DNA of 64,000 nt from an archaeon (GTDB lineage: Archaea > Nanobdellota > Nanobdellia > Pacearchaeales > GW2011-AR1), in assembly GCA_030605415.1 (NCBI GenBank), contig JAUWIJ010000005.1, forward strand, positions 2,375-66,374. Reading direction: 5' to 3'. This document shows, in pieces, positions 21,165 to 21,250 of this stretch. The translations under genes were made by a program, and so were the position numbers. Numbering within the stretch: position 1 is the first letter of the stretch; each line of letters starts with the position of its first letter. Below the pieces are notes generated by a model. That model saw only the letters and a list, made by a program, of their open reading frames with translations, was not told the origin of the DNA and did not search any database.

Positions 21165-21250
21165 TCGCTTTACTCCCAGAACTTAGAACTCAGTACTCAG
21201 AACTCAGAGGGGAATTAGCTAGCAGTTGGTAGTTGGCAGTGGTCGTGCGA
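21165..21250. repeat. mosaic repeat with CAGAACT and AGTTGGT heptamer arrays
   Basis: GGTCGCTTTACTCC then CAGAACT-TAGAACT-CAGTACT-CAGAACT, then AGTTGGT-AGTTGGC. Confidence 0.8.

Follow-up and report, generated by a model that had tools for sequence, protein, structure and literature searches.

An excess of tandem heptanucleotide repeats has been reported for many bacteria, and Mrazek (2007) proposed a polymerase footprint favouring 7-nt slippage as its origin; for both points we draw on two papers (PMC4679880, PMC4692102), which also describe three tandem heptanucleotides, of the short tandemly repeated repetitive (STRR) type, in Calothrix PCC 7601. Here, we analyze the tandem heptamer arrays of a DPANN archaeon, with a 96-nt gene-less mosaic insert at positions 21164–21259 as the focal locus. 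The insert lies in a 64,000-nt stretch of the genome (G000:C19:2375-66374; hereafter the window, to which all coordinates without a contig prefix refer), and the genome itself comprises 888 kb in 22 contigs, is 89% complete and has a GC content of ~35%. A sequence-only reading of the window had found that all of its arrays share a period of 7 and could name no known system with this behavior. In light of the heptanucleotide excess described for bacteria in the papers cited above, that last statement is outdated, and the arrays belong with this excess as an archaeal case.

The arrays resemble the bacterial long simple sequence repeats (LSSR) and STRR in their head-to-tail 7-nt units, in having several words per genome, in their mostly intergenic location and in the over-representation of the period. 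They differ in their occurrence in a DPANN archaeon, in having words of a single mutational family that are tied to hairpin and box modules, and in that many arrays lie in frame within open reading frames (ORFs); in addition, the generic polymerase-footprint explanation does not fit here. The quadruplex-forming heptamers GGGNATC and GGGGA(C/T)T of Xanthomonas and Nostoc (Rehm et al. 2015, PMC4692102) share several features with our GGGATTT, GGGGTTT and AGTTGGG arrays, namely G tracts, strand polarity, a position between co-oriented genes near stops or starts and, sometimes, inverted pairs, whereas G tracts are missing from most of the arrays studied here, such as those of CAGAACT and ACCAACT. 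The TAACTGA direct repeats of marine Beggiatoaceae, cyanobacteria and Bacteroidetes (MacGregor 2015, PMC4679880) likewise consist of an AACT-containing heptamer in 2–6 copies, placed just upstream of starts, including those of ribosomal-protein genes, and distributed patchily. There, however, a single word is involved and no link to genes for intervening-sequence proteins (IVPs) is reported, while here many related words occur together with boxes and hairpins.

Results

Period-7 arrays in the genome and its relatives

We counted non-overlapping arrays of at least three copies across the whole genome with Tandem Repeats Finder (TRF). Period 7 accounts for 150 arrays, compared to 30, 22 and 13 arrays for periods 6, 8 and 9, respectively, and to 7 period-7 arrays in a genome shuffled in 200-nt blocks. 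A TRF-independent count, based on 6-mer identity per lag, peaks at lag 7 (5.0x shuffles) and at lag 14 (3.4x). The period-7 observation at the core of the sequence-only reading is therefore real and far above chance, and the genome-wide enrichment that it had led one to expect is present by both approaches. Sequence outside ORF calls makes up 12% of the genome and holds 61% of the arrays, with the ORFs taken from a longest-ORF caller and the coding and intergenic fractions accordingly approximate. Inside long ORFs, such as an ORF of 3554 aa on contig C9, 59 of the 150 arrays are read in frame without stops, which is not the case at 21164–21259. Selection for stop-free words was considered and set aside: 71% of the words are stop-free on the G-rich strand compared to 62% expected, a difference that is too weak in view of the non-independence of the arrays.

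For comparison with relatives, we used an anchored pattern, (NNNAACT)x4, that is, (AACTNNN)x3 followed by AACT. It matches 55 times in this genome, and 0–10 times per genome in 48 congeners, of which 12 are positive. Outside the genus, a search of 200 genomes of the same family gave matches in a single genome. By TRF, a period-7 excess was absent in 11 relatives totaling ~1 Mb (10 congeners and one genome of the same order, each of at least 30 kb), apart from a mild signal in one of them (G003), and on the basis of this sample we set aside a clade-wide period-7 habit. The arrays are lineage-limited.

This distribution bears on the mechanism proposed for bacteria, in which the replicative polymerase would slip preferentially on 7-nt units and arrays would grow locally from chance heptamer duplications. 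The bacterial excess for which it was put forward (PMC4679880, PMC4692102) provides a precedent, but 36 of the 48 congeners have no (NNNAACT)x4 match and the 10 TRF-sampled congeners show no period-7 excess. Moreover, AT-only words in 1.9 Mb of sequence pooled from relatives show no preference for period 7 (26 versus 18 in shuffles, like period 6), which a generic footprint does not explain. GC-containing words in the same sequence do prefer period 7 (30 versus 5.7 in shuffles), and the clearest of them (AGTCGGA, AGTTGGG, CGGTGGT and TGGGATT) belong to the same word family as the arrays of this genome.

The heptamers form one family and follow the adjoining module

In the sequence-only reading, each locus had its own heptamer. 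This is contradicted by the genome-wide data, in which a few words recur at many loci and the word follows the adjoining module: CAGAACT is found in 43 arrays, GGGATTT in 22, CCCAACT in 19, ACCAACT and TAGAACT in 13 each and CGGTGTT in 8, and these six commonest words make up 118 of 265 period-7 arrays. We compared the GC-containing words allowing for rotation and strand, and drew an edge for every single substitution. In the resulting network, one component takes in 43 of the 48 words, or 166 of the 171 arrays, and the edges total 81; composition-matched random word sets average 20 edges (maximum 35), and their largest component averages 8 words (maximum 25). A chain of single steps runs from CAGAACT through CCGAACT and CCCAACT to CCCAAAT (= GGGATTT), and CCGAACT is also one step from CCGAACA (= CGGTGTT). 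The word is tied to the module or cassette lineage, not to genomic position, and a single family of related words, as opposed to arbitrary heptamers, is a further point against preferential polymerase slippage.

G/T-rich words are found exclusively on the locally G-rich strand (GGGATTT 11:0, CGGTGTT 5:0, GGGGGTT 5:0). In 15 of 15 cases, the co-oriented flanking genes have this strand as their sense strand. Words of the AACT/AGTT type are found in either orientation. GC skew reaches |0.38| contig-wide and up to +0.47 in 2-kb windows, and it approaches 0 only where genes lie on the opposite strand, so that transcription and replication components both seem to be present. Canonical G-quadruplex (G4) motifs are 8x more frequent than in shuffles (98 versus ~12), with 88 of the 98 on the locally G-rich strand. 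Both this enrichment and the strand restriction of the G/T-rich words would be in keeping with the retention of G-rich heptamers (GGGATTT, GGGGTTT, AGTTGGG) and G-rich spacers as G4 formers on the G-rich (sense) strand, for which the GGGNATC repeats of Xanthomonas and Nostoc (PMC4692102) offer a precedent. Four or more G3+ tracts at heptamer spacing are found in these three subclasses and the G-rich spacers, however, and not in the commonest words, CAGAACT, TAGAACT and ACCAACT, which are incapable of forming G4 on either strand, yet have the same period and the same modules. We consider it very unlikely that quadruplex formation accounts for the arrays.

The focal insert and the dispersal of its array block

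The 96-nt insert, to which no strand is assigned, separates two convergent genes whose stops both face it: a membrane-protein gene at 20750–21163 (+) and an eIF-2B-family-like gene at 21260–22090 (−). It opens with GGTCGCTTTACTCCC, a copy of box A and a degenerate CGCTTCGCT box, which overlaps the final stop-codon base (21163–21177, +), and continues with the units AGAACTT AGAACTC AGTACTC AGAACTC AGAGGGG, which form a 35-nt block of a four-unit AGAACTN array plus AGAGGGG (21178–21212, +; called by TRF as CAGAACT, period 7, 4.6 copies, at 21177–21208). AATTAGCTAGC comes next, then the AGTTGGT-type array AGTTGGT AGTTGGC AGTGGTC (21222–21240, +; 2.7 copies by TRF) and, lastly, GTGCGATTTAATATA. 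As single-stranded DNA, the spacer has a poorer fold than its shuffles (z +2.1 and +1.3), and its two arrays are therefore no hairpin pair. Genome-wide, only 3 strict inverted AGTTNNN/NNNAACT pairs exist among 72 anchored arrays (the pair at C9:24050 is a perfect 28-nt inverted copy), which, together with the poor folding at the focal locus, rules out a general role of the arrays as hairpin arms. A restriction-modification signature for the junction-spanning CTNAG pentamer was likewise ruled out, with an observed/expected ratio of 1.03 outside arrays.

Orthologous junctions were compared across 80 metagenomic loci around SecY, where the SecY relatives carry labels of Pacearchaeota, Woesearchaeota or Nanoarchaeota metagenome-assembled genomes. 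In eight relatives (L092, L088, L102, L095, L077, L078, L103 and L108), whose gene-A proteins are 66–82% identical to the window protein, the flanking genes overlap by 4–17 nt. The whole 96-nt spacer is therefore an insertion, and the overlap sequence of these eight empty sites contains no CAGAACT- or AGTTGGT-like seed. Within this genome, the 35-nt block (21178–21212) is found at 14 loci with at most 3 substitutions, including one identical copy and two with one mismatch, one of which lies upstream of the IVP gene C15:43503. The block is mostly preceded by a small hairpin; in the examples from the 14 loci (e.g. C6:25403, C13 and C15:43270), these hairpins (GGAAAAACGGGAAGTTTTTCC, GGATTTTTGGAAACCAAAAATCC, AGGATTAATGCAATTAATCCT, GGACGGGAAGTCC) differ in sequence and keep a GGA...TCC stem form. 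Similarly, the paralogous mosaics at 43060 and 63275 differ through whole-module insertions and not through scattered changes. Together, the recurrence of the block, the seedless empty sites and the whole-module differences indicate that arrays arrive ready-made.

These results separate the two parts of one process envisaged in the sequence-only reading, in which local sequence would seed arrays by templating or slippage. The comparison of words with their flanks was negative, and local seeding is not supported, given the empty sites and the recurring array blocks. Unit-wise slippage, on the other hand, receives indirect support: between a constant hairpin and a constant AGAGGGG or core, AGAACTN units number 1, 2, 3 or 4, in exact 7-nt steps, and both unit number and block number differ between orthologous IVP leaders of two species (L238 and L245). 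We infer that slippage is the step that changes array length. One nested insert repeats an AGTTCT unit, as a target-site duplication would, but insertion into an array also explains this repeat. Lengths that shift by 7-nt steps would also suit a polymerase with a 7-nt preference, but identical multi-unit blocks at many loci and an empty site without a seed do not. Taken with the word family, the behavior of AT-only words and the array-free congeners, these observations argue against a generic 7-nt polymerase footprint as the main cause here, an explanation that we regard as distinctly improbable.

The convergent junction between these two genes is also an insertion hot spot in other relatives (L096, L104, L076, L109, L114, L128, L133 and L143). 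Its inserts across lineages include at least two different small ORFs (in spacers of 246–260 nt and 391–415 nt) and, in L143, a CGCTTCGCT/TAGAAC element.

Boxes and mini-hairpins accompany particular words

Module and word are linked for each of the module types that we defined. Box A (GGTCGCTTYGCTCCC, with up to 2 mismatches) has 16 genomic copies, 13 of which are followed by AGAACTN units, and such units come after every copy of the GGAAAAAC-N-GTTTTTCC hairpin. For the hairpin ATCAGCTTYGCTGAT, the next word is AGTTGGG or GGTTGGG in 22 of 25 cases, both of the same family as the array at 21222–21240. Box E (GGGACAYRAGCGAGG) leads into GGGATTT or GGTATTT, and box D (GGACGCTTCGCTG) is embedded in TCGGNGN units with a period of 7 or 8.

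According to the sequence-only reading, all arrays are attached to the same motif, CGCTTCGCT, and/or to a core. The complement of CGCTTCGCT, AGCGAAGCG, includes GCGAAGC, described as the shortest mini-hairpin DNA, with two G-C pairs, a sheared G-A pair and a melting temperature of 76.5 °C (PMC13037366). GCGAAGC/GCTTCGC occurs 156 times in the genome, compared to 29 times in shuffles, and ranks at the top of all GCNNNGC words, followed by GCAAAGC with 86 occurrences. The center of the box, GC-TTC-GC, is constant and the outer stem differs between boxes (ATCAGC-TTC-GCTGAT, GGGC-TTC-GCCC, TTGC-TTC-GCAA), so that what had appeared as one motif is a family of triloop hairpins.

The association of arrays with these hairpins is real and partial. 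An exact CGCTTCGCT box or core lies within 50 nt of 27% of the arrays; for a relaxed box (GCTT[CT][GA]CT) or core within 60 nt the value is 39%, as against 3.5% for random genome sites and 16% for random intergenic sites. "All" was thus too strong, and no box or core occurs within 1 kb of the window arrays at 49863, 54408 and 61664/61708. When the five defined module motifs are taken together, 59% of the arrays are near at least one of them.

Arrays upstream of IVP genes

PF05635 (S23p/IVP) proteins are encoded by ORF-bearing intervening sequences of 23S rRNA, and the family includes Avd, an accessory protein of diversity-generating retroelements (DGRs) (PMC10053308; bioRxiv 10.1101/2024.02.27.582315). 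The genome holds four strong and two weak PF05635 genes, and all four strong ones have heptamer units or mosaic modules within 260 nt upstream of the start. One of them, an IVP or four-helix-bundle gene at 19712–20089 (+; 98 bits), lies in the window, where its cassette leader (19602–19711, +) comprises a hairpin, GTGAGTG/GTAAGTG/TTTGAGT units, a TCGCTTCGCTG box of the CGCTTCGCT type and a GGGCTTCGCCC hairpin. The IVP copies are all situated between protein genes, none of them in a 23S rRNA helix with a long stem, and inverted flanking arrays are seen at a few IVP genes only (C15:43503, L247 and L254).

At the SecY junction, relatives with an IVP gene have (T)AGTNNN-type arrays (TAGTTGG TAGTGGG TAGTTTT..., TAGTTAG TAGTATG..., TGTGAGT GGTGAGT), and in relatives without the gene the array is absent as well, the short contig L080 retaining only a leader remnant. 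Strong IVP genes occur in 10 of 12 array-positive versus 6 of 36 array-negative congeners (Fisher 6e-5), and multiple IVP copies in 9 of 12 versus 1 of 36 (1e-6), both values being uncorrected for relatedness. Furthermore, we examined 20 IVP genes from 14 congeners, and at least 10 of them are preceded, within ~150 nt, by a period-7 array of three or more copies, where the background density would lead one to expect ~1% (binomial 2e-15). Other IVP genes of congeners have period-8 or period-14 arrays, and several of the upstream arrays include a GC-TTC-GC hairpin. Each IVP-linked array has a word of its own (AGATGAC, TCAGGTT, TTTCAGG, TAGCTGT, TAGTTGG, TGTTGAC, TCTGACG, GAATCAA). Our literature searches found no paper on heptamer arrays beside IVP genes.

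In one congener (L250; G006:C21:4000-5750, with an upstream flank that is partly N), an IVP gene beside a tRNA gene stands between long direct TCTGACN arrays of 11.9, 7.9 and 13.3 copies.

Hints of a positional constraint within units, and candidate enzymes

Variation within arrays is uneven across the heptamer. Within AGnnCTn units, variation amounts to 1–2% for A, G and T, 4% for C, 7–14% for the inner pair and 17% for the spacer; for the AAC of CCAACTn units it is 0–5%. Because array units copy one another, these figures are descriptive and do not represent independent tests. At the orthologous SecY-IVP junction, AGT is kept every 7 nt across species while the other positions change. The uneven variation and the kept AGT anchor lead us to retain a second hypothesis, in which a protein would read an anchor spaced by 7 nt (AG..CT, AACT or AGT) on DNA or RNA and selection would keep the arrays, which may serve as a leader, a regulatory site or a recognition site for cassette copying. 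The most obvious candidate would be the IVP/Avd-like protein, given arrays directly upstream of IVP genes, with a separate word for each copy, and the co-occurrence of the two in the genus. However, most arrays are distant from any IVP gene, the proposed binding is predicted from sequence, in-frame arrays inside ORFs are hard to square with regulation, and units that were copied from each other may simply have inherited the pattern, in which case the statistics are overstated. On balance, we hold a 7-nt reader to be unlikely as the explanation of the arrays.

The genome also encodes two reverse transcriptases (RTs; RVT_1, at C9:43329-43916 and C11:1413-2108). A weak PF05635 (Avd-like) gene lies within ~600 nt of each, mosaic elements are nearby, and either RT could in principle extend arrays by heptamers copied from a short template, as telomerase does. 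The usual layout of a DGR, however, places an RT beside an Avd-like gene, RT genes are found in 6 of 12 array-positive versus 12 of 36 array-negative genomes (p = 0.32), and no RT match occurs in the array-rich genomes G232, G248 and G004. RT presence being unassociated with arrays in the genus, we set the link aside as weakly refuted by this comparison, and templating by an RT is extremely unlikely. The two loci themselves (C9:43329-44815, flanked by two giant ORFs of 3554 aa and 1461 aa, and C11:1413-3040) look like DGRs in an 888-kb genome.

Four tyrosine-recombinase matches were found in the genome, and nothing ties them to the repeats. XerA-like recombinases are encoded at 62066–62890 (−) in the window and at C7:35063-35542 (151 and 152 bits), the former gene sitting between the mosaics at 61664–61731 and 63285–63590.

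Other arrays and features of the window

The arrays listed in the sequence-only reading all exist at or near the positions given there, with the qualification that those at 24178–24258, 43068–43325 and 63285–63590 are runs of 1–3 units split by boxes. All arrays described in this section are on the + strand. A perfect TTCGGTG array of 5.0 copies (49863–49897; 100% matches by TRF) lies between two + genes. GGGATTT and GGTATTT arrays are interleaved with box E (GGGACACGAGCGAGG) and G-rich spacers at 2236–2405, as seen by TRF and in the sequence, and GGGATTT arrays recur with box E at 54313–54431 (TRF array at 54346–54431). At 60020–60095, inspection of the sequence reveals GGGATTT units interrupted by a CGCTTCGCT box.

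Two elements at ribosomal-protein junctions contain box D. At 7073–7130, the sequence reads as TCGGTGG units, box D and TCGGTGT units, and at 14108–14150 TCGGTGT units surround box D (TRF and sequence). TCGGTGT units accompany two box D copies at 57423–57472 (TRF; 23-nt period, 100% matches). A further element at 12879–12955 combines 2.3 copies of TTCGGTG, a core hairpin and 2.5 copies of TCGGATGG with period 8 (TRF and sequence). The composite mosaic at 43068–43325 consists of boxes, CAGAACT units, a core, a C-rich loop and AGTTCTG units (TCTAAGT/TCTGAGT by TRF at 43262–85); its paralogue at 63285–63590 (85% column identity; TCTAAGT/TCTGAGT by TRF at 63499–523) contains one more core, as well as an additional hairpin with one unit. 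Lastly, 2.6 copies of TAGTGAG (61664–81) and 3.4 copies of AGTTGGT (61708–31) flank a small hairpin at 61664–61731 (TRF and sequence).

Two features of the window are separate from these arrays. A 55-nt tandem repeat (55293–55412; 2.2 copies, 90% identity) between two small + genes is unrelated to the heptamers. At 46329–46414, adjoining tRNA-Leu, tRNA-Arg and 5S rRNA, Rfam calls a third tRNA (54 bits) and ARAGORN calls none; this tRNA may contain an intron or an unusual arm.

Discussion

We propose that the arrays are built-in parts of dispersed mosaic or cassette repeat modules, diversified by mutation and unit-wise slippage, and we consider this probable, if well short of certain. The observations that carry it are the period-7 excess, the linkage of module and word, the word network, the insertion at the focal locus, the dispersal of array blocks, the limited lineage range and the co-occurrence and adjacency of IVP genes; the manner in which modules are copied, and any role of the IVP protein, we infer. 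A typical module would consist of a short GC hairpin or box, often GC-TTC-GC (the complement of GCGAAGC), flanked by 2–6 tandem 7-nt units. Modules would be copied ready-made to new sites, including gene junctions, 3' ends and positions in frame within ORFs, and would nest in one another. Their fullest form would be the upstream leader of a small IVP gene cassette (PF05635, Avd-like four-helix bundle), most copies in this genome being gene-less. The length of an array would change by whole units, through slippage or unequal exchange, so that the period stays 7, and point mutations would alter the word and then spread along the array, so that every word belongs to a single mutational family, with a separate word for each module lineage.

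Several observations weigh against this proposal. Across the whole genome, ~41% of the arrays are near none of the five defined module motifs. Slippage was not directly observed and is deduced from the unit counts of paralogues, and neutral slippage alone does not predict the position-specific conservation and the AGT anchor. Neither terminal inverted repeats nor a target-site duplication is seen at 21164–21259 in comparison with the empty sites; in this respect, and in that it does not fold, the element is also unlike a miniature inverted-repeat transposable element. No transposase or other mobilizing enzyme was found in the 89%-complete genome, and the absence of matches to Y1/RAYT (REP-associated tyrosine transposase; PF01797) and TnpB led us to discard these two as the mobilizing enzyme. 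The co-occurrence of IVP genes and arrays in the genus is uncorrected for shared ancestry. Finally, only 4 strong IVP genes stand against ~127 array clusters, and since most arrays are solo, their cassette origin is an extrapolation.

Among mosaic repeats, the modules are reminiscent of bacterial interspersed mosaic elements (BIMEs) and repetitive extragenic palindromes (REPs) of enterobacteria, with which they share a small number of short module types combined into mosaics at gene junctions, nesting and hairpin modules, and from which they differ in that no RAYT gene accompanies them here. In their in-frame copies inside ORFs they resemble Rickettsia palindromic elements (RPEs). REP, BIME and RPE elements are not known to include tandem heptamers. 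With the intervening sequences of 23S rRNA the modules share the small four-helix-bundle gene, which in both settings behaves as a cassette that can be inserted and has structured flanks; the cassettes studied here, however, lie between protein genes, and their flank is a heptamer array with a mini-hairpin, usually upstream only. Unlike in a DGR, RT presence is unassociated with the arrays, and the variable array positions are not adenines. The system is thus distinctive in being archaeal, in having one word family, in forming a BIME-like mosaic without RAYT and RPE-like in-frame copies, and in a link to IVP genes and GCGAAGC that we found in no paper.

For the heptanucleotide excess of bacteria, noted since 2007, the polymerase footprint favouring 7-nt slippage is the sole explanation put forward in the literature that we draw on. 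The present genome speaks against such a generic footprint: unrelated words have no period-7 preference, most of the sister species searched are array-free, and modules appear to be copied ready-made. Instead, the arrays are tied to two concrete objects, the GCGAAGC mini-hairpin and the gene for a small IVP/Avd-like protein. For the annotation of DPANN genomes, this suggests that many short ORFs and extra loops of conserved proteins are module read-through. By extension, and as an idea that we rate as quite unlikely, the arrays and GCGAAGC mini-hairpins could be the cis sites of widespread, undescribed mobile cassettes, with the IVP/Avd-like protein as a trans factor that binds the array of its own lineage and with the gene-less arrays as non-autonomous copies. 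If true, this would provide a mechanistic origin for the prokaryotic heptanucleotide excess and a function for PF05635 proteins outside DGRs.

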